DNA of 60,487 nucleotides, filler included. It is 6 parts of 6 records of this genome, joined end to end, with 100 filler letters (N's around TTAATTAATTAA, not from the genome) between each part and the next. Parts side by side here need not be neighbours in the genome. Positions count along the whole stretch, not along the records: positions 42,641 to 54,938 come from DRR723986_26603; 5 more parts are not named here. One strand, 5' to 3'. The notes below the pieces were generated by a model, which searched no databases, was not told where the DNA came from, and saw only the letters and a program-made list of their open reading frames with translations. Positions 38,910-60,108 of this stretch are shown here, piece after piece (the stretch's first letter is position 1; every line of letters begins with the position of its first letter). The translations under genes and the position numbers were made by a program.

Positions 38910-38931
38910 GACCCATACCCATTTTCTATTT

Positions 38932-38962
38932 GGCCCTGAACCTCGGTTCGGGGCCTTTTTTT
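38932..38962 (+). terminator. Rho-independent terminator after dnaA
   Basis: GGCCCTGAACC-TC-GGTTCGGGGCC followed by T7. Confidence 0.85.
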
Positions 38963-39144
38963 GTTCGTAACATGTGTGCACATTTCCACGATTCACCACC
39001 AACTGTGCTATTCGTGACACGCCCCCCTTGACGCCCTTGATTTTCCAACCGACAAATCCATGAAAAACCTTGTGTTGCAGGGGCAAACAGTTACGTTGCC
39101 TGTCCCGGCTTCCAGTAATGGTCCAAGTCAAAGGATATTAGGGT

Positions 39145-40263: not shown

Positions 40264-40320
40264 CCGCCTGAAATCGATAGCTTTGGCGCACTTTCGTGAC
40301 CAGACAAAGGAGGCGGCCTC

Positions 40321-41418: not shown

Positions 41419-42035
41419 CGGTTACAGTTTGGGATATGGCCCTTTATGCGGGGGCCTTGCTGGTCTTGTTCCTGACACCCGGGCCCGTTTGGCTCGCGAT
41501 TGTGGCCCGGTCTCTGTCGGGCGGGTTCCAAGCCGCCTGGCCGCTCGCTTTGGGAGTTGCGGTTGGGGACATCGTCTGGCCCCTTGCAGCAATTGTCGGC
41601 GTGTCCTGGCTGGTGTCTGAATTCGACGGTGTCATGCAGATCCTGCGGTATGTCGCCAGCGCCACGTTTCTAGGGATGGGGATTTCCGTTATTGTGAACT
41701 CCAAAAAGAAGATCGCAGAAAACAAAACTCTGACCAAACCCGGAAAGCTTGCTGGCTTTTTGGCCGGGCTTTTTGTCATTCTCGCAAACCCAAAGGCGAT
41801 CTTGTTCTATATGGGCATGTTGCCGGGGTTCTTCGATCTCAGTCAGATCACCAAGGTTGATTTGCTGCCAATCTTGTTTCTGTCCTTTTCCGTGCCGCTG
41901 ATCGGTAATTTGGCGTTTGCAGGCTTAATTGGACGCGCCCGTGGGTTCCTGACCACACCCCGCGCAATGGAAAGAACCAACCTCGTTGCCGGTGGCCTTC
42001 TCATTTGTGTCGCACTGATAATTCCATTTACTTAA
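41415..42035 (+). CDS. LysE/RhtB family translocator
   Basis: TPGP motif, ANPKAILFY, six hydrophobic segments; ATGA overlap with recF. Confidence 0.88.
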   Translation: MTVTVWDMALYAGALLVLFLTPGPVWLAIVARSLSGGFQAAWPLALGVAVGDIVWPLAAIVGVSWLVSEFDGVMQILRYVASATFLGMGISVIVNSKKKIAENKTLTKPGKLAGFLAGLFVILANPKAILFYMGMLPGFFDLSQITKVDLLPILFLSFSVPLIGNLAFAGLIGRARGFLTTPRAMERTNLVAGGLLICVALIIPFT

Positions 42036-42207
42036 TACGGGCGTGCACACGCTTTGCAGGGTGATCGGCGAAACCCTCACCCCAGTGGGAAACGGCAATC
42101 CCTCTGATCCCGCGAACTTCACTTTCCAACCACAAAATCTTGTGGGATCGCGTGACATTGCCCACCAGAGAACGTATAACATGACAAAAAAATGAAGGAA
42201 ATTTCGG

Positions 42208-42540
42208 ATGTCCGAAGCCGCACAGACGCCCGAAGAATATGGCGCAGATTCTATCAAAGTTCTCAAAGGCTTAGAAGCCGTCCGAAAACGACCCGGCATG
42301 TACATTGGGGACACGGACGATGGCTCGGGTCTGCACCACATGGTGTACGAAGTCGTGGACAACGGCATTGACGAAGCTTTGGCAGGCCACGCGGATCATG
42401 TCACCGTCAAAATCCACGCCGATTCCAGCGTTTCCGTCAGCGACAACGGCCGTGGTATTCCCGTTGGAATTCACGAGGAAGAAGGCGTTTCCGCAGCCGA
42501 GGTCATCATGACCCAGCTGCACGCGGGCGGTAAATTCGAC
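42208..42540 (+). CDS. gyrB: DNA gyrase subunit B, N-terminal part (truncated)
   Basis: [48 protein letters not shown]. Confidence 0.97.
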
Positions 42541-42640
42541 NNNNNNNNNNNNNNNNNNNNNNNNNNNNNNNNNNNNNNNNNNNNTTAATTAATTAANNNN
42601 NNNNNNNNNNNNNNNNNNNNNNNNNNNNNNNNNNNNNNNN
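42541..42640. other. Artificial contig spacer
   Basis: 100 nt of N with TTAATTAATTAA. Confidence 0.98.
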
Positions 42641-42670
42641 GATTCGAACCTACGACCCTCTGCTCCCAAA
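42641..42670 (-). mobile_element. att site: duplicated 3' half of tRNA-Pro(UGG)
   Basis: Minus strand TTTGGGA-GCAGA-GGGTC-GTAGGTTCGAATC = anticodon loop, 3' anticodon stem and T-arm; 5' anticodon stem and D-arm are absent. Confidence 0.78.
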
Positions 42671-42816
42671 AAATGCCTATACAGACACGAATTTGCTTAT
42701 TTCCCCTGAATAGATCTATAATACACGCTGTCGAAACACGATCCAAGATCGCCTGCAAATCTTGCACTTTTCGCAATGTTTCTCAGTACACCGCCACCAC
42801 AAAACGGTAGTCAAGA

Positions 42817-43689
42817 ATGGACACAATTCCTTACTCGGCCGCGGATGCTATTGGAATATTTGATTCAGAGAAACTCCTAAACGCCACAGTGCAATTCAGA
42901 AAGACCATAGCTTCGAAGATCGCAGGATATCAGGCAGCCTTTGACGACCCGGCTTATCGTGGACTGAAATTGTATAATCCAGTTCCGGATGACGACGGCC
43001 TCGTCAATGCTGACTTTCACAAAGTCGCGGAGCAGTACCAATACAGTGTTCGAATGTATTCGGAACATGGCACCGCGCAGTCTCGGATCGAGATGATACT
43101 GCACGAAGTTTATGAGGCATTGTTCGAGCTAGAAGACGTATCAGACGGTTTTCATCTCAGTATCTATCGAAGAGTCATAACGAGGCTCGATGCGGTCGAA
43201 AAGCTTTTAGAGCAATTGGCCCCAGCCAAACTACAACTCGAGTCGACACATCAGAATGTTGACATGTTTGTGACGTTGCTCAAAGACACCAATAGCAAGG
43301 AGAAAGCCGAGTGCTTTCGCCGTCTTACAGTGCGTGTTCAGCAAAGAGAGCAGGCCGATCAGGTAAGATCGAAACTGGCAAACAAGAGAGTCTGTGTGGC
43401 GATTTTCGAGTACTTGTTCGAACGAATTTCATCAGATTCCCTGATTTCGATTCGTGAGCTTGCTCCGCTGATTGGCAAGCGGAATCGTAGCACGAGGGAT
43501 AGTGATCAGCATGTTGATGATCAATCCATCCAAAAGCGACTTCGTGATCTCGAGTCAATACTTCTTGAGTCTGGCACAAGTCTCCGTTTGGAGAGAGTTG
43601 CAAAGCGTCAGCATCAGACAGACTCAGAACTTGTTCGGTTGTTCTGGCAAACGGAACACGCAGAAGTTCCGCTGAACTCAGCAAACTGA
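42817..43689 (+). CDS. Hypothetical protein, possible C-terminal winged-helix DNA-binding domain
   Basis: 290-aa ORF with ATG; ISIRELAPLIG...SIQKRLRDL resembles an HTH. Confidence 0.55.
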   Translation: MDTIPYSAADAIGIFDSEKLLNATVQFRKTIASKIAGYQAAFDDPAYRGLKLYNPVPDDDGLVNADFHKVAEQYQYSVRMYSEHGTAQSRIEMILHEVYEALFELEDVSDGFHLSIYRRVITRLDAVEKLLEQLAPAKLQLESTHQNVDMFVTLLKDTNSKEKAECFRRLTVRVQQREQADQVRSKLANKRVCVAIFEYLFERISSDSLISIRELAPLIGKRNRSTRDSDQHVDDQSIQKRLRDLESILLESGTSLRLERVAKRQHQTDSELVRLFWQTEHAEVPLNSAN

Positions 43690-44114
43690 GGCGGACGAGA
43701 TTCATCGTGCTGGGCAGCCTTAAGTGGCGGAATCGGCTTACTTAGATTCGGCTGCCGACTACGCCTGCTTGGCCACACAATGGTCGTGACCGCCGCTGCC
43801 AGCGCGACGTGTTTCCTTTTACAGAATTTGTTGGGCCCGTCGCAACAGCCCCATGAGTTCGCGCGACTTGGAGTGATTCCGCAACCAACCATCGCCGAAA
43901 CCACAGCTCGCGATTTCTGGGAATACAGATAGAACTGGCTTTGCCGGTATTCCCAACGCGAGTTCCGACTTTACTGTGGGATCTCCCGTCTGATGATCGT
44001 CGCTCTCCTTGGGCCGCACAGTTTTTGTGAGTCTGGAGGCTCACCGTTGTTTTCCGACGAATCTAGGATTACTGTCTCGGGTCTTTCACCTCAGGCCTTT
44101 AAGAATCAGTTCTC

Positions 44115-44384
44115 CTAGAGTCCCTCATCGATCAAGAAATTGATTGCAGATTCAGGTGCTCGCGATTCGAATTCTTTTTCCGCATCTTGCTGATTAACCT
44201 TACTCAAGAATTCATCTAACCATTCCTCGCACGTCACTCTTCGGCCACCGACTCGCATACTCTTCAACTTTACTCCCCGAACCCCTCGGTCGGCCCATCG
44301 ATACCCAATGGAGACGTGGTGTCTTGTTAAGCCTCGACTCGCCAGCTTCTTTGCGACTTCATTGATTCCAAAAGCATTCTTCAC
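44115..44384 (-). CDS. DUF1580-like small HTH protein (excisionase/AlpA-like, Planctomycete type)
   Basis: HVSIGYRWADRGVRGVKLKSMRVGGRRVTCEEWLDEFL; GGGGAG RBS before GTG 44384. Confidence 0.8.
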   Translation of the reverse strand: MKNAFGINEVAKKLASRGLTRHHVSIGYRWADRGVRGVKLKSMRVGGRRVTCEEWLDEFLSKVNQQDAEKEFESRAPESAINFLIDEGL

Positions 44385-44447
44385 TGATCGATCTCCCCTG
44401 TGAATGGAATTGCACAACGAAGTTAGATCGATCGCTCATTCTGGTCG

Positions 44448-44507
44448 CGGACAAACAGTGTCCGAAATGCTTTCGGCCCACCAAATAAATCGGACAACTC
44501 TTGTCCG
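44448..44507. promoter_or_regulatory. Two palindromic operator-like sites CGGACA-N5-TGTCCG
   Basis: CGGACAAACAGTGTCCG (44448-44464) and CGGACAACTCTTGTCCG (44491-44507). Confidence 0.65.
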
Positions 44508-44690
44508 CGACTCGCTGCGAGAAAACGCGAGAATCCCTAAAAGTCCAATTCGTGAGTAGTAGTATTAGAGACAGGGAACAATCCCCATGTGCCAACTGGA
44601 ATTTGTAATTAACCCGAGGCTTCTACGGGAAAATGACGGGAGCTGTATGTCCAGCCGCTCCGATAAAATGGTGCGCAAGGAGGCAAAGAT

Positions 44691-45824
44691 ATGAGCTTCC
44701 TGCGTTACGTCGTGCTCGACGACTTGTTGTGCACAGCAAAGGGAAAAGAGATTGCCAAAAGAGCGGCAGAGGTCGCTCCTATGTGTCACAAACTCGCAAA
44801 ACGTTTTGAGAGATTCAAAGATCTGCTACCAAACAAACGATGCTACACCAGTGAGCGACGTGCGATTTCAAGTATCAGAATCTGTGATCTGCACCACGAA
44901 GGAACTAAAAGGCTTCTCGAAGATTGCGAGAAGAACCTCCAGCTAATGCAGTCTTGTAAAGCTGGCGCGACTTGCAGTTTGATTGGTTGCCCTAAGTGTT
45001 CGCCTGAGCGCCGCGCAAGAGAAACTGCGCAGGTTGCGGCGTACCTAGAAACCACTATCCGAGAACGCGAAAAGCAGTCTGGTGAGCAGTGCCTGTTATT
45101 CTTGGTTACGGTCACAAATCGATCCGCATGGGCCAGACCACTGAATGAAGCGCGCGCGATCGTAACCGGTCGGCGCAACTCACTGCGGAAAGCGATTGAC
45201 TCGATCGGCAAGGCTGTCACAGTGACTTCGCCATTGGGTGGCGTAGTAGGTGAGGTTACAGATATCGTGAGTTCCATTGACTACTACTACGATTCACCAC
45301 CTGGAATCAATGAGAAGACAAGTCGACTCAACATTCAGGACCGTCTAGAAGCTTCACTCGACATTCACCTCCACTCTCTAGTTGTTTTTCGCCCCTACTA
45401 TCAGCCTACTTTATACAGGTCGGGCGTACAGCGTGCCGGATTTGCGCAGCCGCTCAGGTCAACACTGCGGGACTTGTTTTCACCTAGCTATTCAGTCCAC
45501 GTAAAGCAGATCTCAGAAGGTTTCACAACGAGAACACTCGAACAGCTATCGCAAGAAGAAAGTGCCCGATTCGATGCGGCCACCCAACCGCTAGTGGAGG
45601 TTCTCAGTTACCTCGGAAAAAGTACAACTTGCGATCTTTCCTCATCTCAAGAGCGACCGCTGATCCAAGCCGTCGTTGGCACCGCCCTACGTTCCGCGAA
45701 GTCGATCCTCAAGGGCAAGGCTTTCATTCTGCGATCAAGATTTCTGGATGAGTGCCACCAGAACATCTACCAAACCGAGCGAGACTTCAAAGCTCAGATT
45801 GAAGCTGCTGAGAGACGCCATTGA
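44691..45824 (+). CDS. HUH-superfamily rolling-circle replication initiator (Rep_1-like)
   Basis: Cys cluster C...CSLIGCPKC..RR, motif I FLVTVT, motif II IHLHSLV, motif III EVLSYLGK, in canonical order. Confidence 0.72.
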   Translation: MSFLRYVVLDDLLCTAKGKEIAKRAAEVAPMCHKLAKRFERFKDLLPNKRCYTSERRAISSIRICDLHHEGTKRLLEDCEKNLQLMQSCKAGATCSLIGCPKCSPERRARETAQVAAYLETTIREREKQSGEQCLLFLVTVTNRSAWARPLNEARAIVTGRRNSLRKAIDSIGKAVTVTSPLGGVVGEVTDIVSSIDYYYDSPPGINEKTSRLNIQDRLEASLDIHLHSLVVFRPYYQPTLYRSGVQRAGFAQPLRSTLRDLFSPSYSVHVKQISEGFTTRTLEQLSQEESARFDAATQPLVEVLSYLGKSTTCDLSSSQERPLIQAVVGTALRSAKSILKGKAFILRSRFLDECHQNIYQTERDFKAQIEAAERRH

Positions 45825-45989
45825 GGGAATCCTACACTTCCGATTAAACCGCCCGCACAACGCTTTTCAGGCATCGCTGCCGATCTGACCAGGCACTCCT
45901 AGTCCACTTCCCGAAAAAACTTTTGCATCAGTCGGAAGATTATGGCCAAAATGGCTCTGCCGTTGTGAACGTGAAGAAAGGCAAATCAA

Positions 45990-46454
45990 GTGAACAGACT
46001 AATGAATCAATCTGGCAACACATCGCATCCGTCCGAAGACGACAGAGCACTACTGGATCTAATGACGAATCACTCGGGCGCTGCGTACCTGAGAGGTATC
46101 ACGCTATCGAGCCATCTGGCGGAAGTGCCGTTCGACCAACTCAAGGAGTATGCGCAGCAATTCGTTCAGGATGCGGTAAAGGTTGATCCGACTCACGCGC
46201 CTATTCTTCGAACGATGGCCGAGCAGCTGTTGTTGTCACATCACGTTTGCTCTCGTTTGCTATGTGATGCCGTGGCGGCTACCGGGGAGCAGCAAAGAAT
46301 GCAAACACAGCTAGCAACGTCTTTGATGGCAGAGATGCGGCGTACTTCTAAGGAGCTCACTGATCTAGCAGAGAGGGCTTTGCAGAAGCCAGCGTCGCTG
46401 ACGGCGCAACGAGGTGGTGCAGGAGAAAACGCCACAAAAGCCGAATCAGCTTGA
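45990..46454 (+). CDS. Hypothetical helical protein of the integrated element
   Basis: 154-aa ORF co-oriented with rep; P..RTMAEQLLLSHH...LMAEMRR segment. Confidence 0.6.
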   Translation: MNRLMNQSGNTSHPSEDDRALLDLMTNHSGAAYLRGITLSSHLAEVPFDQLKEYAQQFVQDAVKVDPTHAPILRTMAEQLLLSHHVCSRLLCDAVAATGEQQRMQTQLATSLMAEMRRTSKELTDLAERALQKPASLTAQRGGAGENATKAESA

Positions 46455-46548
46455 TTCGATTCAAAGGGGCCCCTGGAACGAACTTGCTAGTAAGCAGTAG
46501 CCCTGATGTTTGAACCGGCATCGCTGCCGATGTATGGGACCCGTTGCA

Positions 46549-46986
46549 ATGGCAAAGAATCCGAAACGAGTCGCGGCAGGCAAACGCAATCGCGCAAAAC
46601 GAAAAGAACTGAGTGACGAAACGAAACGTCGGTTACGCGATGCCGCACTCAAGAATAAGCCTTGGAAACACTCGACCGGCCCAAGGACAATTGCGGGCAA
46701 GGCGCGTTCTGCCCTGAACCGGAAAAGAAATACTGACACGGCAGGAGACGACCTTGTTTCCCGCTGCAAACATCTTCTTAAGGACATGGGCAAGATCCGA
46801 AGGACTGCCGTGTTGGATGTCGAAACAGCAAGTGTGAACGACGGATCGGCGATAGCCGAAAGTCTCTACGATTTGCTTGTGTCATCCGCAAGAGCGTCTA
46901 CACAGAAGATGGTGAACGACTTGCTCGAAGACTCGGAAAAGAGCATCGACTGCCGACAAGGTTCGACGCGCGACGGTACAGCCTGA
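46549..46986 (+). CDS. Basic protein with STGPRTxxGKxRS motif (HGGxSTG-domain-like)
   Basis: KPWKHSTGPRTIAGKARSALN; strongly basic N-terminus; ATG 46549. Confidence 0.7.
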   Translation: MAKNPKRVAAGKRNRAKRKELSDETKRRLRDAALKNKPWKHSTGPRTIAGKARSALNRKRNTDTAGDDLVSRCKHLLKDMGKIRRTAVLDVETASVNDGSAIAESLYDLLVSSARASTQKMVNDLLEDSEKSIDCRQGSTRDGTA

Positions 46987-47068
46987 AATTTTTTCCATTT
47001 ACAGATTTGCGTGTTAGCTCGGGAGGCATCTATAACGCGTTTTTTAACTCAATCGCGGAGCAAAGAAC

Positions 47069-47623
47069 GTGGATCCTCAAACAGCAGAACACTTTGGTCG
47101 TTTCCTCTTGTTGAATTCCCAGCACAAGAACGGCGAATTCGCAAACCAATGCCTCGAAGCTCTGGTCACCCTCAAAACCCAAGTACCAAACTTCTTTGAT
47201 CAGCTTCGACATAGGCTTCCAGAGCACGCCGCTCTGATCGACAGAGTCTGTGCATCGCTGTCAGACAAACGCTCTTTCGCAATTGAGATATCCCCAATCA
47301 ACCTTGTCCTAGCGGCGCACCGGTTTTCCGACAGCACCTCGATAACTACCGCTCGAGCACTCATTCCCTTTCTGCCGTCATCCGCCTTCAGACGTCTCGT
47401 CCAGCAAGCGTTTATCCAATCGACGAAGAAGTCGTACCACAGGATGACAGTCCGGCTCTTGGAGTCGGCCTTAGAAGCCAATCCAGCCCCTGGAGACGAA
47501 CTTCTCAATATTGAACTCGTTCCACTCCAAAGTCATACGAATTCTCTAATCAGTGAGGCTGCTATGAAAGTCCAGCGGAAACTTCGAGACGAGCTGTCCG
47601 GTTCTGCTGCGACACCAACTTAG
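47069..47623 (+). CDS. Hypothetical helical protein
   Basis: 184-aa ORF; no recognised motif. Confidence 0.5.
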   Translation: MDPQTAEHFGRFLLLNSQHKNGEFANQCLEALVTLKTQVPNFFDQLRHRLPEHAALIDRVCASLSDKRSFAIEISPINLVLAAHRFSDSTSITTARALIPFLPSSAFRRLVQQAFIQSTKKSYHRMTVRLLESALEANPAPGDELLNIELVPLQSHTNSLISEAAMKVQRKLRDELSGSAATPT

Positions 47624-48110
47624 CTTGGCATGAGTGATCGATAACTGGAAATGCGGACCTTAACGACCCGCCTGCTGAAGTAGGCCCAGACGTCGAACCG
47701 GATGAGAGTATAGATACACACGTCTACATCTGGAAGAAAACGTAGTACAGCATCCCGTTACGCTAAGCGTCACAATCCTGACCGCAGTCAGCAGAAATGT
47801 ACTGCCTCCCAGATCTTGTACTTAGCCAAATATTGGGTAGAGAGAATACTAGACCACGGCCTTCAGCTTGCAGCGAACATGTTCCTGTCGAAGTATAAGT
47901 CGCGAGACCGTTCAGGATTGTCCGGAGTGCAAGTTAAGTTTCGACTTACGGCAGCGATGCCTTCCTTGATCAGTGCAGATACGAAGTCCCAAGCTGCACC
48001 GGAGTGCCTGCTACCGGAGCACAATCCTTCAGCTAGGGACCTGTCATTGGCAGACGGTGTGTCGGTAGCGATAATCCACTAATTTCGCCAACTGTTTAGA
48101 GATTCATAGC

Positions 48111-49883
48111 ATGTCGGTAACACCACGGGGGCTGAGCATCCAGGCCGCTTATCGCGACTTTGCTGACGGGAAGTTCCTGGTCAACAGAAAATACCAACGG
48201 AAGCTGGTTTGGACGCGAGAAGAAAAGCGAAAACTCGTTGACAGTATCCTGAAGGGGTATCCGATACCCCTGATCCTCCTGGCGACCGAAACCGCGCCGG
48301 ACGGGGCCAAGACTTTCGAAATCTTGGATGGCATGCAGCGCCTTAACGCAATTTTCGAGTTCATCGAAAACCACTTTGATATCGATGGCCGTTTCTTCCG
48401 ACTTGAAGAATTATCGCGAGCTAAACAACGTCAAGAAGAGGGCGTGTTTGAGCTTCCGGGTTCTCGAACGGGCTTACTCACCAAAGAAGAGTGTTCAAAT
48501 TTCGTCGACTACACTCTCGCGATTACCGAATTTCCCGCTACCGACGAAACGGCAGTTAACGATGTATTTGGAAGAATCAATGCATATGGCCGGCGGCTTA
48601 GCAATCAAGAGCAGAGACAGGCAGGCGTCGTTTCAGGATTTGCAACTTTGGTCAGAACCCTCTCAGCAGAAATGCGGGGTGATGTTTCGCGAGAAACGCT
48701 CGACCTTGCGGAAATGCCATCGATCAGTATCGACCCAGACGACAGCTACGGCATAAAGGCCGACGACACTTTTTGGTGTCAGCAGGGGATTCTGAGGCGG
48801 AATCAGCTCCGCGAGGCAGAGGATGAGCAAATGGTCGCTGACCTAGTCATCTCGATATTGCGTGACGAGCCATTCGCGTTTAGCGGTGCAAATCTGAATG
48901 AATACTATGACACGACTTCCACTCAGTCTGCGGAAATCGAGAGGCTTATAAGCCGACACGGAGCAGAGTCCCTTAAAGAATCTATGCTTTCAACGCTAAC
49001 AATTATTCTGGAGGGATTTCGAAGCATTGATTGCTCCGCAAATGCAATGAAGCGAATATTAAATCCCGATGCGGGTGCAAATCCCATCAAGGGCCCTTTC
49101 TATGCCGTATTCATCGCGTTCTACGAGTTGTGTGTTCAAGAAGAGAAGTCACCCAACGACTTTGCAGGAATCACCTCCGCTCTCACGGGACTACAAGAGA
49201 AGCTGAATGTTGCGCGGGGGCAGGTGACGGCAGATGCACGCCGTCAAAACATAGATTTGACGAAAGGACTTATCGACAGATTCTTTGATGAACGCGATCC
49301 GCCTTCAGTCAGTACCGGCTCTGGATTGGGCATCCGATTGTCAAATGCGCTAAGGAGGTCAAGGGTTGAGACTGCGGCGTTCGAAACCAAACAAGGGTTG
49401 GTAGATTTAGCTGCGACGAGAATCGAGAATCAGAATGTATTGAGTGATGTGTTGGAAACCATCTGCGCTATTGCCAACCTTGGTCCGAACAGCGATGGTG
49501 CAGTGTTTATTGGGGTAGCTGATAACCAGAACGATGCGACTCGTATAGAACAGCTGGATCGCATTCACTCAATACAAGTTGGGGCAAGGTTCATTGTGGG
49601 CGTGGAACGTGAGGCCTCTATTCTGGGAATAGATCTAGACACTTACCTGCAGCGGATTTCGCAGAAAATCTCGAATTCAGGACTCAGCGAACCCTTGAAA
49701 ACGTCTGTCCTTGGAAAACTGGATTGTATTGATTTCAGGTCCCTCTCGGTGATTTCAATCTGGGTCCCGCCGCAGGAAATAATGTCAACGCTCAATGATG
49801 AGCTCTTCGTGCGTAAAGGAGCAAATACTGAACGCGTAAGTGGTGTATCCTCGATAAATGCTGTGCAATCCCTATTCAATTAG
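48111..49883 (+). CDS. DUF262 (GmrSD N-terminal, ParB-like) fused to a C-terminal Schlafen/AlbA_2 domain
   Basis: YQRKLVWT, LVDSILKGYPIP, EILDGMQRL, VFGRINAYG..LS.QE (DUF262); ETAAFETK, ETICAIAN, GAVFIGVAD, FVRKGANT (AlbA_2). Confidence 0.85.
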   Translation: MSVTPRGLSIQAAYRDFADGKFLVNRKYQRKLVWTREEKRKLVDSILKGYPIPLILLATETAPDGAKTFEILDGMQRLNAIFEFIENHFDIDGRFFRLEELSRAKQRQEEGVFELPGSRTGLLTKEECSNFVDYTLAITEFPATDETAVNDVFGRINAYGRRLSNQEQRQAGVVSGFATLVRTLSAEMRGDVSRETLDLAEMPSISIDPDDSYGIKADDTFWCQQGILRRNQLREAEDEQMVADLVISILRDEPFAFSGANLNEYYDTTSTQSAEIERLISRHGAESLKESMLSTLTIILEGFRSIDCSANAMKRILNPDAGANPIKGPFYAVFIAFYELCVQEEKSPNDFAGITSALTGLQEKLNVARGQVTADARRQNIDLTKGLIDRFFDERDPPSVSTGSGLGIRLSNALRRSRVETAAFETKQGLVDLAATRIENQNVLSDVLETICAIANLGPNSDGAVFIGVADNQNDATRIEQLDRIHSIQVGARFIVGVEREASILGIDLDTYLQRISQKISNSGLSEPLKTSVLGKLDCIDFRSLSVISIWVPPQEIMSTLNDELFVRKGANTERVSGVSSINAVQSLFN

Positions 49884-50031
49884 ATTCTATTCACTCGAAT
49901 TCGCCGAACGACCGCGAAATCGGTCCAGGAACTCGCAAGGGGTTCCGGATTTGTCGCTCCGGTCCCACTCGTTCCGGCGCTGGCGATCCGCAGACCAAAC
50001 GACGCAGTGCTATCGGCAACTAACGTACCTG

Positions 50032-50784
50032 CTAGGCTACGCTGCGGATCCCAAACGCCTTTCGAGCTGCTGCGAGCTCCGCTTGCAATCGCTCATCCAC
50101 ATTATCTCCAGTCAACTGAACGCCCAAAGTCTTGAAAATACAACGCACAACCCTGGCCACCGGCGGGCTGGACTCTAAGTAGTCGTCGCCTGCGGAAAGC
50201 GTCTGCAGGCGTTCGGTAAGATTCGCCGTGAAGTCTGCTTCGGCGGCTTTCAAAAGCAACAATGCCGGCTCAAGAACACTCAATCCACCGGTATAAGCTA
50301 GACGATGTAGTACCATTCTTTCGAAATTCGGATCTTCACTTCCGAGTGGCACACTGCGAAGGACATGTGTATGTATATAAAGTTCATCTGACAGCCGATC
50401 GCTAATATCGAAATACCCCTCCACGTACGCGTTGGTGGAACCTGTAGGCAAAGACATTATTCGTGCTGCTTCATCAGAATTCTGACCTGCCAATAGTCGA
50501 CACTCAAGCTCTCTGCGTAGCGCGGCATACTTCTGATCGAAAAAGATATGGTGCGCAGTCTTAAAGTGTGAGTACCCACAGATGCTAACGCTATGGCCGT
50601 TCAGGTAGCGGAGCAATCGAACAATGTTAAGCGTTGCCTGGTCGTCATCTGGGTTGTACAGAGCCGACTGCGTCTCGTCCGGTTCATCTTCGCAACCAAG
50701 TTTGACGAGTGACTTTGCTCGAATGAAGCGCCAATCCGGTGGTGTATTCCAGCTCTTTCTTGCGTAGTCGAAATAAGGTATCAC
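50032..50784 (-). CDS. Hypothetical protein (Planctomycete island type)
   Basis: 250-aa ORF, AGGAG RBS before GTG; PPDWRF, LECRLLAGQ, YFDISDRL motifs. Confidence 0.65.
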   Translation of the reverse strand: MIPYFDYARKSWNTPPDWRFIRAKSLVKLGCEDEPDETQSALYNPDDDQATLNIVRLLRYLNGHSVSICGYSHFKTAHHIFFDQKYAALRRELECRLLAGQNSDEAARIMSLPTGSTNAYVEGYFDISDRLSDELYIHTHVLRSVPLGSEDPNFERMVLHRLAYTGGLSVLEPALLLLKAAEADFTANLTERLQTLSAGDDYLESSPPVARVVRCIFKTLGVQLTGDNVDERLQAELAAARKAFGIRSVA

Positions 50785-51570
50785 GATTTACTCCTAGCGT
50801 TTGGGGATAGCTCGCGAGTAATTCTCCCTTAATGTGCAGCAAGCTGCTAATTTGAATGTGCGTGAGTTGTCTGACGGGACGCCAGAGGCAACATCTTCTT
50901 GCCTGCTATGGCCGCAACTTCGCTTGAGTCAACCAAGCTCGAAGCCAGCTTTGCTAGAGGAAGCTAGAGTTCACGGCGTTCAAATGGCCTAGAAGTCTTT
51001 GCAGCCACCGACTACCGGCAGCGATGCCGATATTTCGGGGCGCCCCAGCATTAAAGACTGAATGTCCATCGATCGCATCGCGACGTCAATAGTGGCAGAG
51101 GAATTTGACTTGCCGGCCGCCACAGTCCGCCGATATCGATCAAGAGTGTCGCGAAGGATTCGACAACAGCTCGGCGACTCTGAGTGAGTCCTCACATTTC
51201 GTGACAATACGTATTTTCGTAACACACGCATGCTAGCTTGCCCAAGGAGATGCGTTCTGTCTTGAAAACGCAAACTGTGTGAAGTGGTACATCAATGTGC
51301 AATGTCCGTCGCGATCGCAAATCTCACGCTAAAAAGCGAGGAGTTGGACGATTCGCTGAAAATCTTAGAGTAACAAAGTCTTGCAACCGACTTTGTGAGC
51401 ATTGCCGATTTCTCAGACTCGAAGCCATAGAGGCTGCGGTCCGGATTCGTGACAAGATAAAAGGCTACAGCGCTGACTTGCCCAAGACTTCTGTCGCACC
51501 AAGCTGATATTGCCAGGTCAGGCAATTCCATTTTACACAGCTGCACGCCACATCCGGCCCGTAAGCTGCG

Positions 51571-51787
51571 TTACCGAAGATTTCTAGCGGCACTGGTCTT
51601 TCTGGTCTTTGTATGCGGCCTAACATCTGGGTGTCTCTTTAGAATCTTGAGGAGTTCATCTCGCTCGCTTGGCTCGAGCAGCTCGAATGCCAGAACAGCA
51701 ATGATTTGATGCCCATGCTCAGACAACGCAGATGCTGGTTGGCAGAGCATTAATACGACCATCATTTGCTGCAAGTAGTTGTTTCAT
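51571..51787 (-). pseudogene. S1/P1 nuclease N-terminal remnant
   Basis: Frameshifted signal peptide (ATG 51787), then ASA-LSEHGHQIIAVLAFELL...ILKRHP resembling the WxxxGH start of S1/P1 nucleases (W replaced by L); early stop. Confidence 0.6.
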
Positions 51788-51950
51788 TGTTCTTGGTAGA
51801 TGGTTGTAGGGTTAGAATTCCAACCGGTTCCCACCGCTACTGTGAAGATCACATGAATCCTCTAAAGCAGATTCTTACTGACCCGCAATGGAGAAGCAAT
51901 TAATGTAGTTTAACAACCAGCTAGAAAGAGCTGAAACTTCGGAGCAGTGT

Positions 51951-52464
51951 ATGAGATTGCGGCCACAATTTTCGATTTCGCTACTCTTAGCGGCTGAAAC
52001 ACCAATGGCATGTATTGGAATCACTGAGCAGTGTCGGTTTTGATCAACACTTCGTGGCTGATAACATCAACATCGCGACATCGAAGTACGATGACCAGCT
52101 TCCCGTCCTGCCAGGACAGCGGCGTTAGAGAAGGCGGCAACTGCTCAACCTCGATGCAGATGCTACGCTGGACGACTTCGAAAAAGCAGTGACACTACCA
52201 CATCTTGATTCGCTTGCTTTGCAGACGAGGTATCTATCCGATGAGGCTTGTAAGAGCATCGCTTCGAGTCTGAGTCTGCAATGCATAATCGCAGATGATA
52301 TATGCGAGTTGGAGGGATTCAAGTTTCTGTGCCCGGCGGCGAAACTAAAATTCCTGCTGATAAGCGTTTGGAAGAAAGATGTTGAAGCAGCTGAGGCGAT
52401 TGCCCGCAAGAGGGGAATCAGAGTAAACCTAAGCACATCTGAACAAAGGTGGCACCAGAAGTGA
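51951..52464 (+). pseudogene. Probably disrupted membrane-anchored protein gene with leucine-rich C-terminal part
   Basis: GGAG RBS plus MRLRPQFSISLLL N-terminus stopping at 52043; LRR-like text continues in another frame (52129-52464). Confidence 0.35.
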
Positions 52465-53147
52465 GTAAGTTGTTGAACTGGTTGATCCTGCTGACTCTGT
52501 TTGCCGGGATAGGCTTAGGATTAGTTCGGTTTCAGCAGGTGCTCGGCGAGTTCAACCGTCTAAATGAGGTTTACGAACCACTTGCGGGAGACATTCGCAC
52601 GTTCGAGCCGGGCTCTCGCCCGAACGAGTTCTATGTGCGTTGCGTCGTTAGAAGGAGGATGAATCTATGCTGGCAGTTTTCGATTCCACCAGGCAAGAAG
52701 TTTGCGTTGGTTAGACAAGGAATCATGGATGGTGGCCTCCAAATATTCGAAAATCCTCCTGCACGCTCGGTCCACAGTTTTGAGTGGGCAGTCTCCTCAG
52801 ATCGACGTGGCCGTGCCTATTTTAGGGTCGGGTCTAGCAGTACCAGAACCACTGGGACCTATGATGACGAAGTCGCGAGTTTCTTAACTGACCACTGGGA
52901 TCAACTGGTGATAACGGTCGCAGGTGACTCTGAGATGGAAGTCTTCAACGTAGAACAGCCGGCAACTCTGCTGAGCATCGAGATCCCTGCGGAAGTGCTT
53001 GCCGAAGCCTCGGGGACTCTCAGTGCTTATTCGGTAAAGCAAATGGAAAAGCCGACTGTCTTCTACTTGGCCGACTTAGACTGTGGGTGCTGGGATTCCC
53101 TTCAGTTGGGTGCTAGTGCCAATGCGATGGTGGAGCGAATGCGTTGA
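52449..53147 (+). CDS. Hypothetical N-terminally anchored protein
   Basis: 232-aa ORF with one N-terminal TM helix. Confidence 0.6.
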   Translation: MAPEVSKLLNWLILLTLFAGIGLGLVRFQQVLGEFNRLNEVYEPLAGDIRTFEPGSRPNEFYVRCVVRRRMNLCWQFSIPPGKKFALVRQGIMDGGLQIFENPPARSVHSFEWAVSSDRRGRAYFRVGSSSTRTTGTYDDEVASFLTDHWDQLVITVAGDSEMEVFNVEQPATLLSIEIPAEVLAEASGTLSAYSVKQMEKPTVFYLADLDCGCWDSLQLGASANAMVERMR

Positions 53148-53740
53148 TTGTCTCCGGTTTCCTGAAGTTTGGTTTGTCTCACGCTCTGGCTCTCCTGACA
53201 CTGGTGGCTGTCTGGACGGCCAACTACAGAATTGCTTCGGACATCGCAAGTATGCGAGCTGAGTTGGAAGCATATGCAAAATACACTCCAGTGCTTCTGG
53301 TTGATGACCCTGGTAAACTAGCCGTCTTACTGGAGCCTATAAAGTGGTCCCACGAAGTATCTTGGCAAGCATACGTACCTGAAGACTCAACGACGGTCTT
53401 ACAAGTAACGCAAACCTCAACACGGCCACCGTTCGGCGACGACGCTGAGGTCATCAGAATTCCACTTGAACCTGGGCGGCATAGTATTAAGTTCTGCCAC
53501 TTCAGACAAACGAAATTCAAGTCCGGCGAGAAACGCAAAGAAGAGATTTACCTCATCATCGATGGCGAGGAAACGCTCGTGGGCGAACAGTTCGTCAGTC
53601 GAAATGCAGTCCGAAAGTCGATCCCAGGTGGTTGGCCTGGAAACCAAATTGAGCTTGATCCGGATGACCAATTCGAACTGCTCGCACCTTCTTTCAATGA
53701 TCATCTTCCCTACAGGCTAATCATTACACCGCTCAACTAA
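53144..53740 (+). CDS. Hypothetical N-terminally anchored protein
   Basis: 198-aa ORF, 4-nt overlap with the upstream gene, N-terminal TM helix. Confidence 0.6.
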   Translation: MIVSGFLKFGLSHALALLTLVAVWTANYRIASDIASMRAELEAYAKYTPVLLVDDPGKLAVLLEPIKWSHEVSWQAYVPEDSTTVLQVTQTSTRPPFGDDAEVIRIPLEPGRHSIKFCHFRQTKFKSGEKRKEEIYLIIDGEETLVGEQFVSRNAVRKSIPGGWPGNQIELDPDDQFELLAPSFNDHLPYRLIITPLN

Positions 53741-53761
53741 TTCAAGACTGGATTTGGACCT

Positions 53762-54442
53762 ATGAGAACACGAGATCTGTTAGCCGCTTCCTTTGCTGTC
53801 TTTTGTTCAGCAACTAGTGCTGTAACAGCGCAGCAAAGAGCTGAAATTCAAAGTACGGGAGACCGAAGCAAGGACGGCTGGACAGAAGTTAGCAAATTCT
53901 ACGGTGAGCAGCGGTCCGAACTTGAAGCAAGGCTGAAAGACGCCGAGCAGCAAAGGCTTAAACTTGAGGAACAGTTGAAACGAAATGAGGAATTGATAGC
54001 ACAACTAACACACGTGAGAGTCAAAATCGACAAGCAGCTGCGTGCCCCAGTGGCCGACCGAGAAATCGTCCAACTGTTTCAACAGCAAGTACGAGAAGAA
54101 CAAAAAGATCAGTCGGAAGCACTGCGTCTAGCTCAGCTCGCTATACAGGAGCAGAATCCAGTTCTTCAGAAAGCCTCGCAAGAGATCTCGCGTCTTCGAG
54201 CAGGACAAGACAAAAGGCAAGCCGTTGAGACAACTGTAGCGAACGTCCAGAAAGAGTCGCTGCAGCGATGGGAATACAAGACTCGCGAAGTCGTGAGTAC
54301 GTCAACCTTGATCAGCCCCATCATCACAAGCATGGCCCGTGCGGGCTGGGAGTACGACAGTCAGGTCTTGTTGCCTTCCAACAAATCGAGCCCAGTCTTC
54401 AACAAGTCGGTCCTGGTGTTTAGAAAGCCGGTAGAGAAATAA
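53762..54442 (+). CDS. Secreted coiled-coil protein with a C-terminal DUF4177-like motif
   Basis: Signal peptide, heptad-rich middle, RWEYK...AGWEY...LVFRKP tail. Confidence 0.6.
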   Translation: MRTRDLLAASFAVFCSATSAVTAQQRAEIQSTGDRSKDGWTEVSKFYGEQRSELEARLKDAEQQRLKLEEQLKRNEELIAQLTHVRVKIDKQLRAPVADREIVQLFQQQVREEQKDQSEALRLAQLAIQEQNPVLQKASQEISRLRAGQDKRQAVETTVANVQKESLQRWEYKTREVVSTSTLISPIITSMARAGWEYDSQVLLPSNKSSPVFNKSVLVFRKPVEK

Positions 54443-54465
54443 CAGAACGGAAGGAAGCACCTACA

Positions 54466-54693
54466 GTGAAAGAAATCGGAGTTGGAATTCGAATCGAACC
54501 TGAGTCGGGGATGTCGTTTACTGGAATCGACGAATTGAACGAGCTGATAAGCCGTGGTGCCGTCGTCACCTCAGTCGAACCTGGCGGCGCTATGCTGCGG
54601 GAACTTGATGGCGATGGCGATGATGAAGATGTTCGGCTTACTCTTTCCGGTTGCGAGATTAAAGTACTACTCGACGACTCTAGTGTCGCTTAG
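54466..54693 (+). CDS. Small acidic hypothetical protein
   Basis: 75-aa ORF preceded by GGAAGG. Confidence 0.5.
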   Translation: MKEIGVGIRIEPESGMSFTGIDELNELISRGAVVTSVEPGGAMLRELDGDGDDEDVRLTLSGCEIKVLLDDSSVA

Positions 54694-54938
54694 GACGTTT
54701 GATTTTGAGCGCCTTCGCCAGGACTGCGGGCAGCAACTACTCTGACTGCTTATTGGAGATTGAACAGTCTCAGTCAAGGTAGATGACTTTAAGCGTATCG
54801 CTGCTGTCAATTCTGTTTTCCGCCTCAAAAGACGCTATCTTCCTATTGTGCAGTGAAGCCATCTGCGGCGGCGGACTGACTCAGATCTCAAAACTTCGAA
54901 GTACTCAGATTGCTTCTATGAAACCTATCGAATCACTA

Positions 54939-55038
54939 NNNNNNNNNNNNNNNNNNNNNNNNNNNNNNNNNNNNNNNNNNNNTTAATTAATTAANNNNNN
55001 NNNNNNNNNNNNNNNNNNNNNNNNNNNNNNNNNNNNNN
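54939..55038. other. Artificial contig spacer
   Basis: 100 nt of N with TTAATTAATTAA. Confidence 0.98.
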
Positions 55039-55067
55039 ACAGCGCTGCGCGCTTCCTCAGGATGAGG
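55039..55067 (-). repeat. Partial alphaproteobacterial REP-like element
   Basis: Minus strand CCTCATCCTGAGGAAGCGCGC..., same head as 60458-60487. Confidence 0.7.
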
Positions 55068-55104
55068 ATGTATTGGTGTCAGGATCAGGCGTTCAAAGGC
55101 GAGG

Positions 55105-56175
55105 CTACGCTTCCCGCAAATTCGCCAGAATGATCTCGCTCCAGACCCGGGTCGGCGGGATCCAGGCCGACCAGTCGTTGTAATTGCCGGAATAGATGAC
55201 GGCCGCAACATCGGCCTTGGGGCACAGCCAGAGCCGCTGGCCACCATTACCGAAGCCGGCAAACCAGCGTGTCGGGCCGCCAAGAGCCGGAACAGGAACC
55301 TGGCCGCAAAACCAGAAATAGCCGTATCCCGGTCCTTCGCTGGTTTCAATGATTGGCTGCAGTGAAGCCCGGATCCAGGCTTCGGGAACGATCTCCCGGC
55401 CCTGCCAGATACCGTTGTCAAGAACGAGACGTCCGATCTTGAGCAGGTCCGGCGCAGCCAACCTCAGCCCGGATGCCGGCGAATAGGCCCCGTCCCGGCC
55501 GATAGACCAATCGAACTGCGTTATGCCAAGTGGCGAAAACAGGCGTTCCCTTGCATAATCGGCCAGCTTCTGCCCCGTTCCCCGTTGCAGGATTTCGCCC
55601 ACCAGCGCGGTGGCTCCGCCGCTGTAGATCCATCGGGTGCCGGGGTCTCCCACCAGCGGCCGCTCCAGAATGTAACGGTACCTGTCCGGGGCCATTTCCA
55701 TGGCGATTTCGCTGTTTTCCGGATCGGTATAGGGGCGGGTCTCGTCCCACTCCATGCCGAGCGACATGGTCAAGGCGTGTTCCACGGTCCGCTCCATGCG
55801 TTTCGGATTCGCGGCAAGGTCGGCAAATTCGGGAAAAAGCTCCAGGACCGGCGTATCGAGCGTCGGCACCTCGCCCCGCTCCAGTGCGATGCCATAGAGC
55901 AAGCTGACGATGGATTTGGTGATAGAACGCAGGTCGTGAAGGGTCTCGGGGCCGAAGGCTACCTCACCGATCGGACGGCCCCAGTTTTCGTCCTCTCCCT
56001 TGCCATAACTTTCCAGAACCGTCTCACCACCGCGTTCTGCAATCACGACATGAAGATGCGGCAACAAACCTGCCTCGGCACCGGCGCAGAGCTTGCGGCC
56101 AAGGGACGTATCGAACCCGCGACGCTCGGCAGCCGCCGCGTGGGGTGAGAGCGAAAGACCGTCGGTTGACTTCAT
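55105..56175 (-). CDS. Serine hydrolase, class C beta-lactamase/NylB-like family
   Basis: SITK (SxxK), LTMSLG, WIYSGG, YGYFW, GNGGQ. Confidence 0.88.
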   Translation of the reverse strand: MKSTDGLSLSPHAAAAERRGFDTSLGRKLCAGAEAGLLPHLHVVIAERGGETVLESYGKGEDENWGRPIGEVAFGPETLHDLRSITKSIVSLLYGIALERGEVPTLDTPVLELFPEFADLAANPKRMERTVEHALTMSLGMEWDETRPYTDPENSEIAMEMAPDRYRYILERPLVGDPGTRWIYSGGATALVGEILQRGTGQKLADYARERLFSPLGITQFDWSIGRDGAYSPASGLRLAAPDLLKIGRLVLDNGIWQGREIVPEAWIRASLQPIIETSEGPGYGYFWFCGQVPVPALGGPTRWFAGFGNGGQRLWLCPKADVAAVIYSGNYNDWSAWIPPTRVWSEIILANLREA

Positions 56176-56269
56176 GGAGAGCTCCCTTGCGTGAAACCTG
56201 AAGGAAGTGTCGGCAGTTTCATCGCCAAATGCGAGCGTTATTTGAAAGGTTTATTGCCGTGCGAGGAGC

Positions 56270-56300
56270 TTGACCTTCCACCAACTGGAACCACCATAGT
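56270..56300 (+). promoter_or_regulatory. CueR/MerR-type promoter
   Basis: -35 TTGACC, 19-nt spacer, -10 CATAGT; dyad ACCTTCC-N7-GGAACC. Confidence 0.75.
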
Positions 56301-56337
56301 GAGAGGGAGAAGCAACTTGCGTCAGGAAGGTGGGAGA

Positions 56338-57723
56338 GTGGATCGGCGTTCGTTCTTGAAAGCATCGGTGGCAGGAGGTCTTGCTGCCTTGTCACCAGCC
56401 TTTGCTCTGGCAAAAACGGAAGAAGGTTTCTTCGACCTTGCGGCGGTCAAGGGACAGGCCCGACTTTATGGCAAGGACGGCGGCCTCTCGGATCTCTGGC
56501 TCTACAACGACCGGCTGCCCGGTCCGCAGATACGGGTCAAGCGCGGCGAACGCGTCAGAGTGCGCTTCACCAACAACCTCGACGAACCCACCTCGGTCCA
56601 TTGGCACGGCATCCGCATCGACAATGCCATGGATGGTGTTGCCGGCCTCACCCAGCCCCCCGTCGCCCCCGGTGAAAGCTTCGACTACGACTTTGTCGTG
56701 CCGGACGCAGGCACCTTCTGGTACCACGCCCACAACATGAGCTGGAACCAGGTGCCGCGCGGCCTCGCGGGCGCACTGATTGTCGAGGACGACGAGCAGT
56801 CCTTCGACCCGGAGTGCGACATCACGCTGATCCTCAACGATTGGCGTCTGGACGAAAACGGTATCCTGGAAACCGCAAGCTTCGGTGCCATGCACGACTT
56901 TGCCCATGCCGGACGTCTGGGCAACTGGCTGACCATCAACGGCGCTTCGATGCCAGACATTGCGTTGAAGAAGGACCGCTGGCACCGGCTGCGCCTTATC
57001 AACGCCTCCACGGCGCGTATCCTTGATCTGGCTCCGGCGCGGTTTGGTGCGAAGATAGTCGGGCTTGATGGGCAGGCCTTTGACACCGCGCGGGAGGTCG
57101 AGGGCACTGTGCAACTGGCACCGGCACAGCGCATGGATCTGGTACTACGACCTCAGGAAACCGGCAAGCTGCCATTCGAGATGATGACCGGCAAGCCGTT
57201 CACCTTCGCCAACTTCGTCGTCTCGGAAACCGAAAGCGAAGACCTGCCACTCGTGCTGCCACCGCCGAACCGGTTGCCTGAACCCGATCTGAGCTCTCCC
57301 CGGGAACTGCCATTAGTGATGGCGGGTGGAGCCATGGGCGGCATGCAGTCGATGATGAGACACGGCGTCGAGATGGACATGCGCCAGATGATGTCCGAGG
57401 GGCTCTTCTGGGCTTTCAACGGTGTGGCCGGTATGGAAGATGATCCGATGTTTTCCGCCAAGCGCGGCGACACGATCCTTCTGGAAAGCCGGAACGACAC
57501 GGCTTTCCCGCATGCGATCCACCTGCATGGCCATCATTTTCGCGTCATCGAGCGCGATGGCACGAAACTGGAGAACCCCGACTGGCGTGACACCTTCACA
57601 AGTCAGCCGCGCGAGACCGTCAAGATCGCCTTTGTTGCGGACAATCCCGGGAAATGGCTGATCCATTGCCACATGCTCGGTCATGCGGCATCGGGCATGA
57701 TGACCTGGTTCGAAGTGAGCTGA
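56338..57723 (+). CDS. Tat-exported multicopper oxidase (CueO/CopA-like), start revised to GTG 56338
   Basis: DRRSFLK Tat motif; HWHG, WYHAH, HAIHLHGH, HCHMLGH...GM copper ligands; Met-rich insert. Confidence 0.93.
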   Translation: MDRRSFLKASVAGGLAALSPAFALAKTEEGFFDLAAVKGQARLYGKDGGLSDLWLYNDRLPGPQIRVKRGERVRVRFTNNLDEPTSVHWHGIRIDNAMDGVAGLTQPPVAPGESFDYDFVVPDAGTFWYHAHNMSWNQVPRGLAGALIVEDDEQSFDPECDITLILNDWRLDENGILETASFGAMHDFAHAGRLGNWLTINGASMPDIALKKDRWHRLRLINASTARILDLAPARFGAKIVGLDGQAFDTAREVEGTVQLAPAQRMDLVLRPQETGKLPFEMMTGKPFTFANFVVSETESEDLPLVLPPPNRLPEPDLSSPRELPLVMAGGAMGGMQSMMRHGVEMDMRQMMSEGLFWAFNGVAGMEDDPMFSAKRGDTILLESRNDTAFPHAIHLHGHHFRVIERDGTKLENPDWRDTFTSQPRETVKIAFVADNPGKWLIHCHMLGHAASGMMTWFEVS

Positions 57724-57735
57724 AACAGCCGGTGG

Positions 57736-58530: not shown

Positions 58531-58722
58531 GGCGGAAGCCTTCGCGGTCAGGAGATCTGGAGTTTGTGGTTAACTTGGCAGATTTTTCCGAAAAGACAGC
58601 CCCTCCCCCGCACTTTCCCCAACTTGGCACGTGCTGTGGAAGAATGGCCATGAGCCAAGCCGGCAAACGACATGCTTTGCCAGAAGCCTCTTTCATTTCA
58701 GGGCCGAAGACCTTATATCAGG

Positions 58723-59806: not shown

Positions 59807-59823
59807 GATCGGGAGCCTTTCCC

Positions 59824-60102: not shown

Positions 60103-60108
60103 CCGCCA

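Follow-up and report, generated by a model that had tools for sequence, protein, structure and literature searches.

The window analysed here, a stretch of 60,487 nucleotides (nt) with filler included, carries on its plus strand a complete gene (48111..49883, ATG to TAG) for a protein of 590 amino acids (aa) in which a DUF262 domain, a helical middle domain and a Schlafen domain follow one another, as they do in the pSlfn7 type of prokaryotic Schlafen protein. Calling and translation of the open reading frame (ORF) gave a frame without an internal stop from the ATG at 48111 to the TAG at 49881-49883. The upstream ORF stops 487 nt 5' of the start codon, the downstream ORF is convergent, and scans for promoters and terminators returned site counts no higher than in shuffled sequence.

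Pfam assigns residues 23-171 to PF03235 (GmrSD_N/DUF262; E = 4e-23, 83 bits against a cutoff of 33.2) and residues 441-575, a span of 135 aa, to PF04326 (SLFN_AlbA_2; E = 1.4e-6, 29.2 bits against a cutoff of 25.3). Neither DUF1524 nor any further Pfam family was found in the protein at E ≤ 1, and NCBIfam has no model for it. With predicted folds taken into account (see below), the protein divides into a ParB/sulfiredoxin-like DUF262 (GmrSD_N) domain (residues 1-172; 48111..48626, plus strand), marked by the PF03235 match, by the folds of SspE and ParB/Noc and by the PADLOC profile NsnA; a helical middle domain (residues 173-405; 48627..49325, plus strand), collinear with the middle domain of BrxU; and a Schlafen/AlbA_2 domain (residues 406-590; 49326..49880, plus strand), a predicted RNase effector on the basis of PF04326 and fold matches. 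The PADLOC profiles match the DUF262 part only, the best being NsnA (E = 1.6e-24, covering profile positions 46-213 of 385), with PD-T4-2_A also matching (E = 1e-14). One PHROG family, phrog_26759, matches the protein over its full length (E = 4.4e-118).

The N-terminal domain contains the three motifs by which DUF262 is defined in the parts of PMC12065111 drawn on here (QRxxxW, DGxQR and FxxxN), in the forms QRKLVW (48195..48212), DGMQR (48327..48341), the predicted nucleotide-phosphate binding centre, and FGRIN (48567..48581), all on the plus strand. The C-terminal domain contains ETAAFETK (E420-TAAF-E425-T-K427; 49368..49391, plus strand), which conforms to the active-site motif Ex4(E/D)xK, and GVAD (49512..49523, plus strand) with the conserved acidic residue D471. 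An earlier reading of this gene (the sequence-only reading) had described its DUF262 motifs as intact and followed by an AlbA_2 domain retaining ExxxxExK and GVAD in the place usually held by DUF1524, and this description is correct letter for letter.

Conservation and membership of the pSlfn7 class

A word-indexed search scored 8000 candidates, of which 1515 proved to be relatives at E ≤ 0.001. The best 120 of these 1515 are all 51-81% identical to the window protein, nearly all about 590-600 aa long, and come from many phyla. Because relatives are this numerous and each of the 120 listed is at least 51% identical, the domain match is far beyond chance. The closest among the matches listed are a Planctomycetota protein (81%) and a protein of Posidoniimonas corsicana, of the order Pirellulales (67%). 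Also among the matches listed, identities of 51-63% span planctomycetes, proteobacteria, cyanobacteria, myxobacteria and spirochaetes, which is unusually high for a defence gene. When 50%-identity representatives were searched exhaustively, 5373 matched at E ≤ 0.001, of which 751 reached 1e-10 and 272 reached 1e-30, and contigs sampled at one genome per species contained at least 586 relatives, from 601 pattern matches listed.

We counted conservation at each position in 135 aligned full-length relatives. Y28, Q29, R30, W34, D73, G74, Q76, R77 and N157 are invariant (135/135), as are R169, R189 and D238 just past the Pfam DUF262 domain, and F153 of the third motif is kept in 134 of the 135. 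In the Schlafen domain, E420 and K427 are each present in 134/135, position 425 is acidic in 134/135 (82 E, 52 D) and position 471 is D in 122 and E in 12, again 134/135 in total. The DUF262 and Schlafen motifs are nearly invariant, and both halves of the protein are therefore under strong constraint. To judge from the alignment, this constraint would be compatible with an enzyme that has two working active sites.

This architecture has been catalogued by Perez Taboada et al. (Nat Microbiol 2026; PMC13056530; preprint 10.1101/2025.07.24.666596), whose paper we cite in part. Their survey covers 5,930 prokaryotic Schlafen proteins in 55 architectures, with membership resting on a Schlafen domain (PF04326) of more than 100 aa, and it names Ex4(E/D)xK as the Schlafen active-site motif. 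In this scheme DUF262.pSlfn is class pSlfn7, which comprises 109 proteins (1.8%); its defence score within ±10 kb is 0.76. The authors cloned two members of the class, that of Escherichia coli UC4224 (EcoSlfn7) and pSlfn7_Elu. EcoSlfn7 was protective when cloned alone under its native promoter, with -log10 efficiency of plating (EOP) values of 1.0 for T2, 0.52 for T3, 1.16 for T4, 1.25 for T5, 0.41 for T6 and 2.75 for T7 (PMC13056530, Fig. 1d source data). Plating of T7 was thus lowered about 540-fold, the strongest effect among the phages tested, and plating of lambda, P1, T1, M13, MS2 and Qbeta was not lowered (PMC13056530).

The window protein combines a PF04326 domain of 135 aa with PF03235 in one polypeptide, has the Ex4(E/D)xK motif, and is homologous to EcoSlfn7 over its full length (41% identity over 575 collinear residues, E = 2e-150; 590 versus 589 aa). 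EcoSlfn7 is identical to a protein of one of the prophage loci described below (L087) and falls in one family tree with the window protein. The two share the three-part architecture, a nearly equal length, the active-site motif and the state of a single gene without a partner; they differ in that the window protein belongs to another subclade, in which its nearest kin are planctomycete proteins and proteins of marine metagenome-assembled genomes, at no more than 81% identity among the matches listed. It is near certain that the window gene is a further copy of the published single-gene DUF262-Schlafen class, and not a new system. Its earlier designation as a candidate single-gene antiphage system thus agrees with a class that has a protective member (EcoSlfn7) and no conserved partner gene, and the accompanying caveat that similar fusions might already be catalogued was justified by pSlfn7 itself (PMC13056530).

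Predicted structure

An AlphaFold2 model built on the 135 relatives had a mean predicted local distance difference test (pLDDT) score of 93.1 and a predicted template modelling (pTM) score of 0.88. The C-terminal part of the model (about residues 406-590) matches the folds of DIP2311 (3lmm, Z 10.7), of SAMD9 from human and rat (7ksp, Z 10.1; 9o0d, Z 9.8) and of the Schlafen proteins SLFN14 (Z 8.3), SLFN11 (8.0), SLFN5 (7.8), SLFN13 (7.5, at 25% identity) and SLFN12 (6.5). The sequence-only reading had made its proposal depend on a Schlafen fold at the C-terminus, and matches at Z 7.5-10.7 to AlbA_2, SAMD9 and SLFN structures support that fold. The window protein thus shares with SLFN11/13/14 and the transfer RNA (tRNA)-cutting domain of SAMD9 the AlbA_2/Schlafen fold (Z 7.5-10.1) and an acidic Ex4E motif, at 17-25% identity over about 117-157 aligned residues. 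The region of the SLFN proteins that aligns to residues 406-590 is their C-lobe (chain residues ~186-349). In place of the two-lobed nuclease core of the SLFN11/13 type the model has this single lobe, the remainder being ParB-like and helical, and the window protein also differs from the mammalian SLFN proteins in having no helicase domain.

With regard to the catalytic Glu-Glu-Asp triad of SLFN11/13-type nucleases, Ex4E aligns at the sequence level with E191/E196 of pig SLFN11 (numbering of the deposited chain), although in a non-significant alignment (E = 0.096). D471 of GVAD aligns with the second D of GVDD in pig SLFN11 and with GVID in CbCash, both in weak HMMER alignments. Prediction of a homodimer from two copies of residues 400-590 gave a score of 0.00, which speaks neither for nor against self-association.

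The N-terminal part of the model resembles SspE (Z 8.1, model residues 1-162) and, at Z 5-7.5, ParB, Noc and sulfiredoxin. Over a longer stretch, residues 3-392 are collinear with BrxU 1-417 (Z 8.7, root-mean-square deviation (rmsd) 11.9). BrxU is also the only protein that a profile search of solved structures with the whole protein reached, at marginal sequence similarity (E = 0.37 with the single sequence, 1.5e-4 with the profile). When the middle domain was folded alone (pLDDT 84.2), its best match among 48,161 representative Protein Data Bank chains, in a search made without Foldseek, was BrxU 244-420 (Z 6.0, rmsd 4.3, 155 residues aligned); Foldseek with this domain alone returned nothing at E ≤ 0.001. 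The helical domain associated with DUF262 has been called ParBDB and described as a DNA-binding domain common to DndB, GmrSD, SspE and NsnA (PMC12065111, cited in part), and we tentatively regard the middle domain of the window protein as a DNA-binding domain of this type.

The protein therefore resembles GmrSD, BrxU and SspE, which are Type IV restriction and phosphorothioate-sensing nucleases, in its ParB-like DUF262 domain with QRxxxW, DGxQR and FxxxN and in the helical domain that comes next, but differs from them in that their C-terminal His-Me/DUF1524 DNase is replaced by Schlafen/AlbA_2. Compared with a GmrSD-type enzyme, the N-terminal DUF262 motifs are present and the C-terminal DUF1524 nuclease is absent. 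NsnA of the Menshen system (NsnABC) and PD-T4-2_A are the closest DUF262 profiles in PADLOC, although the match is limited to the DUF262 domain. Membership of Menshen is contradicted by the surroundings of the gene, with no NsnB or NsnC, ATPase or effector neighbour on its contig and none conserved in the 67 genomic loci described below.

Genomic setting of the gene and its relatives

A repeat search of the window revealed a 100-nt linker of the six-frame-stop type (N run, TTAATTAATTAA, N run), present in five identical copies at 23966-24065, 30092-30191, 36480-36579, 42541-42640 and 54939-55038. Because these identical linkers stand at the junctions, the window is a set of six joined contigs, and because it is, any neighbourhood that crosses a junction is artificial. 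The GC contents of the six are 0.39, 0.52, 0.57, 0.56, 0.50 and 0.59 and their tetranucleotide profiles are poorly correlated; they may represent different organisms. The 12,298-bp contig that carries the gene (42641-54938) lies between the linkers at 42541..42640 and 54939..55038. We rejected a genomic island beside dnaA-dnaN-recF, since its GC step reflects the artificial joins at these two linkers, and likewise a low-GC 'island' between recF/LysE and a beta-lactamase-fold gene, which is an artefact of contig joins. Any reading of the window in terms of an island or a neighbourhood has to be redone contig by contig.

The gene's own contig contains no integrase, no mobility gene above threshold and no phage genes, and PHROG matched none of the 10 other ORFs scanned on it. 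It encodes a DUF1580 protein (E = 3e-11), of a family with many members in Rhodopirellula, and a 377-aa protein (44691-45824, plus strand) with a long match in Pfam to the rolling-circle family Rep_1 that stays below threshold (24.4 bits against a cutoff of 33.2). The latter has a single relative (59% identity) among 5.8 billion sequences and none in plasmids, and could be a very divergent replication initiator of a planctomycete element. The remaining content of the contig is orphan ORFs. A circular plasmid or phage contig was rejected, there being no terminal overlap, no PHROG match and only the sub-threshold Rep_1 match. At its left end (42641-42670) the contig resembles a tRNA T-arm read in reverse complement (GGTTCGAATC-like). 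An assembly interrupted at a tRNA or attachment (att) site could produce such an end, but a tRNA or att fragment there was also rejected, as Rfam found nothing at either contig end. Synteny with relatives of the window was discarded as well, as only thyA and a short stretch matched, apparently in kin of another of its contigs. The nearest genome sharing words with the window had no match across 39000-58900, and a scan of metagenomes yielded one 1.6-kb fragment.

We fetched 157 loci of relatives, of which 120 (72 genomic, 48 viral) encode at least 540 aligned residues; in 111 of these (67 genomic, 44 viral) ORF calling found the gene again. When the four genes on each side were clustered, the most widespread neighbour family, aconitase B in related cyanobacteria, reached 6 of the 67 genomic loci, and the strands of the neighbouring genes are mixed. 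The DUF262-Schlafen gene is stand-alone in these loci, with no conserved partner. Twelve of the 44 viral loci have the gene flanked by the P2 replication gene A on one side and the portal and terminase genes on the other, which is also the position of EcoSlfn7 in UC4224. A second slot for accessory genes was seen in 5-6 prophage loci (L110-L112 and relatives, IMG/VR), where the gene lies between baseplate V and the tail-completion gene (Phage_tail_S). The viral matches are prophage-type IMG/VR contigs, and isolated phage genomes gave no match at E ≤ 1e-20 among 50,697 phage records. At the same threshold 615 plasmid records match, 144 of which cover at least 80% of the query. Carriage in a P2-prophage hotspot and on plasmids is typical of defence genes.

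Such a P2-like prophage hotspot is the site of EcoSlfn7, whereas the window copy is found among orphan genes on a short contig. Of the earlier description of the gene as stand-alone cargo in a mobile element, the first part is borne out by the lack of a conserved partner; the second finds no counterpart on a 12,298-bp contig without an integrase or phage genes. Carriage by a mobile element is thus unproven for the window copy, though true of many relatives.

The other contigs of the window have contents of their own. Contig 1-23965 (GC 0.39) encodes polysaccharide biosynthesis (Wzi, sugar transferases, DegT, Polysacc_synt_2), a 1034-aa SprB/PKD/IgGFc-binding surface protein and a 1468-aa PAS-rich hybrid histidine kinase, contains a 146-nt direct repeat (9135-9280 and 9479-9620, 87.7% identity) and looks Bacteroidota-like (SprB, Wzi), unlike the remaining window. 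Contig 24066-30091, whose tetranucleotide profile is the closest to that of the gene's contig (r 0.82), ends in a truncated MmeI/Eco57I-type restriction-methylase gene (27302-30091, plus strand; PF07669, E = 2.5e-38, with MmeI_Mtase and MmeI_hel), which is preceded by two minus-strand ORFs of 440-480 aa without a Pfam match (24422-25864 and 25854-27182). These two contigs may derive from one organism or one defence region. Contig 36580-42540 contains the dnaA-dnaN-recF origin region and a LysE exporter. Contig 55039-60487 encodes a beta-lactamase-fold serine hydrolase, a multicopper oxidase with a Tat signal and thyA, together with a transfer-messenger RNA gene (58713-59064) with the tag ANDNYAMDNAVAA.

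Function and mechanism

A role of the window gene in phage defence is likely, judging from its sequence relationship to EcoSlfn7. We think it probable that the product is a stand-alone antiphage protein of the pSlfn7 type in which a nucleotide-gated DUF262 sensor would release a tRNA-cutting Schlafen domain. The ParB-like DUF262 domain and the helical BrxU-like middle domain would together form a nucleotide-dependent sensor or switch for an infection cue, probably phage DNA or a product of its replication. Triggering of this sensor would release the C-terminal Schlafen nuclease, which would cut tRNA, so that translation would stop and phage yield would fall.

Each half of this proposal has precedents in the parts of the literature cited here. 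DUF262 of GmrSD and SspE is a nucleoside triphosphatase (NTPase) sensor whose DGxQR motif touches the nucleotide phosphates (PMC12065111), and bacterial Schlafen domains are tRNases kept inactive until a sensor is triggered, as in RorSlfn5 and CbCash (PMC13056530, PMC13462974). RorSlfn5 is a hexamer that is triggered by a T5 tail-assembly chaperone and cuts the anticodon arm (PMC13056530). CbCash is a dodecamer that forms filaments with cyclic tetra-adenylate (cA4) and cuts the T-loop and the anticodon loop, and its catalytic residues E17/D22 form an Ex4D motif (PMC13462974). From these two proteins we infer tRNA cleavage by DUF262-Schlafen proteins. All three couple a sensor to a single Schlafen effector domain bearing Ex4(E/D)xK, but the sensors of RorSlfn5 and CbCash are an Ig-like domain and the cA4-binding Csx15, and that of the window protein is DUF262; because the sensor differs, the trigger of the DUF262 class must differ too. 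Literature searches on prokaryotic Schlafens, anti-phage Schlafens and GmrSD found no paper on the mechanism of the DUF262-Schlafen class, and a search for DUF262 together with AlbA_2 returned nothing.

The DNA of T7, T5 and T3 is not known to carry hypermodified bases. Since EcoSlfn7 acts most strongly on T7 and also restricts T5 and T3, the protein is unlikely to depend on sensing modified DNA. The sequence-only reading had proposed that the protein senses modified phage DNA or nucleotide changes, and these phages make the first of the two doubtful; base modification of phage DNA would probably not be needed for triggering.

Several observations weigh against the mechanism proposed above. 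One of the two tested members of the class is inactive, as pSlfn7_Elu was non-protective (-log10 EOP ≤ 0.19; PMC13056530, cited in part), and the window protein is further from EcoSlfn7 in the family tree (distance 2.97) than from the other members overall (median distance 2.08 to all others). PADLOC found no match in the 15 other ORFs of contig 42641-54938. Around relatives, it matched 13 of 150 neighbours within two genes (E ≤ 1e-5; the 150 drawn from 206 neighbours of at least 100 aa in 51 genomic loci), in 9 of the 51 loci, the matches including PtuA/Old-like proteins, a type IIG restriction-modification protein and a Type IV enzyme. With respect to the Schlafen domain, a profile of the C-terminal domain stayed below significance against solved Schlafens (SLFN11, E = 0.096; CbCash, E = 0.14), its best match being an unrelated, spurious photoreceptor (E = 0.0098), and D471, the third acidic residue, is offset from SLFN11, lying one position past the presumed catalytic Asp of GVDD in a single, non-significant alignment. 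The match of the predicted middle domain to BrxU (Z 6.0) is suggestive, but weak for a helical domain. For DUF262-Schlafen proteins, moreover, what is cut (RNA or DNA), what triggers them and what part the nucleoside triphosphate plays are taken by analogy from other proteins.

Some of these observations bear on other explanations. The protein might be a DNA-targeting, Type IV-like enzyme, in which the DUF262 and middle domains recognise phage DNA and the AlbA_2 domain binds or cuts DNA and not tRNA. We consider this unlikely. Although the N-terminal two thirds are collinear with BrxU (Z 8.7; 6.0 for the middle domain alone), the His-Me/DUF1524 DNase of GmrSD is absent from the window protein (Pfam, E ≤ 1). 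Similarly, the AlbA_2 domain of SAMD9, among the best C-terminal fold matches, was crystallised with DNA (7ksp, Z 10.1), and the title of the SLFN5 structure, another of the fold matches, refers to DNA binding, but the SAMD9 domain is also deposited as a tRNase (9o0d) and Schlafen nucleases with a defined substrate cut tRNA or ribosomal RNA (PMC13056530, PMC13462974, as far as cited here). EcoSlfn7 restricts phages with glucosylated hydroxymethylcytosine and unmodified phages alike, unlike a modification-dependent enzyme.

It is also improbable, in our estimation, that the window copy provides no working defence in its host, whether as a silent or mis-tuned gene or through a non-immune role such as nucleic-acid housekeeping or plasmid or prophage addiction. 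Its reading frame is unbroken, and none of the invariant residues in either domain has been lost. The lack of protection by pSlfn7_Elu would fit such a copy, but failure to protect E. coli from nine coliphages does not amount to lack of function, and another family member, EcoSlfn7, does protect experimentally (PMC13056530, cited in part). The surroundings are divided in the same way: for 24% of pSlfn7 genes no defence gene lies closer than 10 kb (from the defence score of 0.76; PMC13056530), the gene's contig has no defence neighbour in PADLOC and only 9 of the 51 related loci have a PADLOC match within two genes, whereas the family is found in P2-prophage accessory-gene hotspots and on plasmids. 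Lastly, it is very improbable that the protein is the sensor-effector of a multi-gene system, either Menshen-like (NsnA with the ABC-ATPase NsnB and the effector NsnC) or associated with bacteriophage exclusion (BREX) or Dnd, with its partners off the contig: NsnA is the best PADLOC match of the N-terminal domain, BrxU and SspE accompany BREX and Ssp systems as accessory genes (structure titles; PMC12065111, cited in part) and the compositionally similar contig 24066-30091 carries the MmeI/Eco57I-type gene, but the NsnA match is confined to the DUF262 part, no neighbour family exceeds 6 of the 67 genomic loci, cloned EcoSlfn7 was protective by itself from its native promoter, and the roughly 5 kb on each side of the gene contain no ATPase or nuclease partner.

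If the gene encodes a stand-alone antiphage protein with a sensor-gated, tRNA-cutting Schlafen domain, as we favour, a more specific version can be formulated, albeit as a doubtful one that we raise as a possibility: the DUF262 and helical module may be a ParB-type nucleotide switch that reads a modification-independent feature of phage DNA, either as it enters or as it replicates, and is coupled directly to the tRNA-cutting Schlafen domain. The architecture, spread and antiphage activity of the class were already published in 2025-26 and the window gene is one more well-conserved copy, so that the gene on its own matters little. The strict conservation of its nucleotide-binding and nuclease motifs nevertheless makes it a clean subject for the question of what triggers the DUF262 class and what it cuts. 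Were the ParB-type switch correct, it would be the first link of a ParB/CTPase-like clamp to translational shut-off, and the high conservation across phyla (51-63% identity) would point to one universal trigger.

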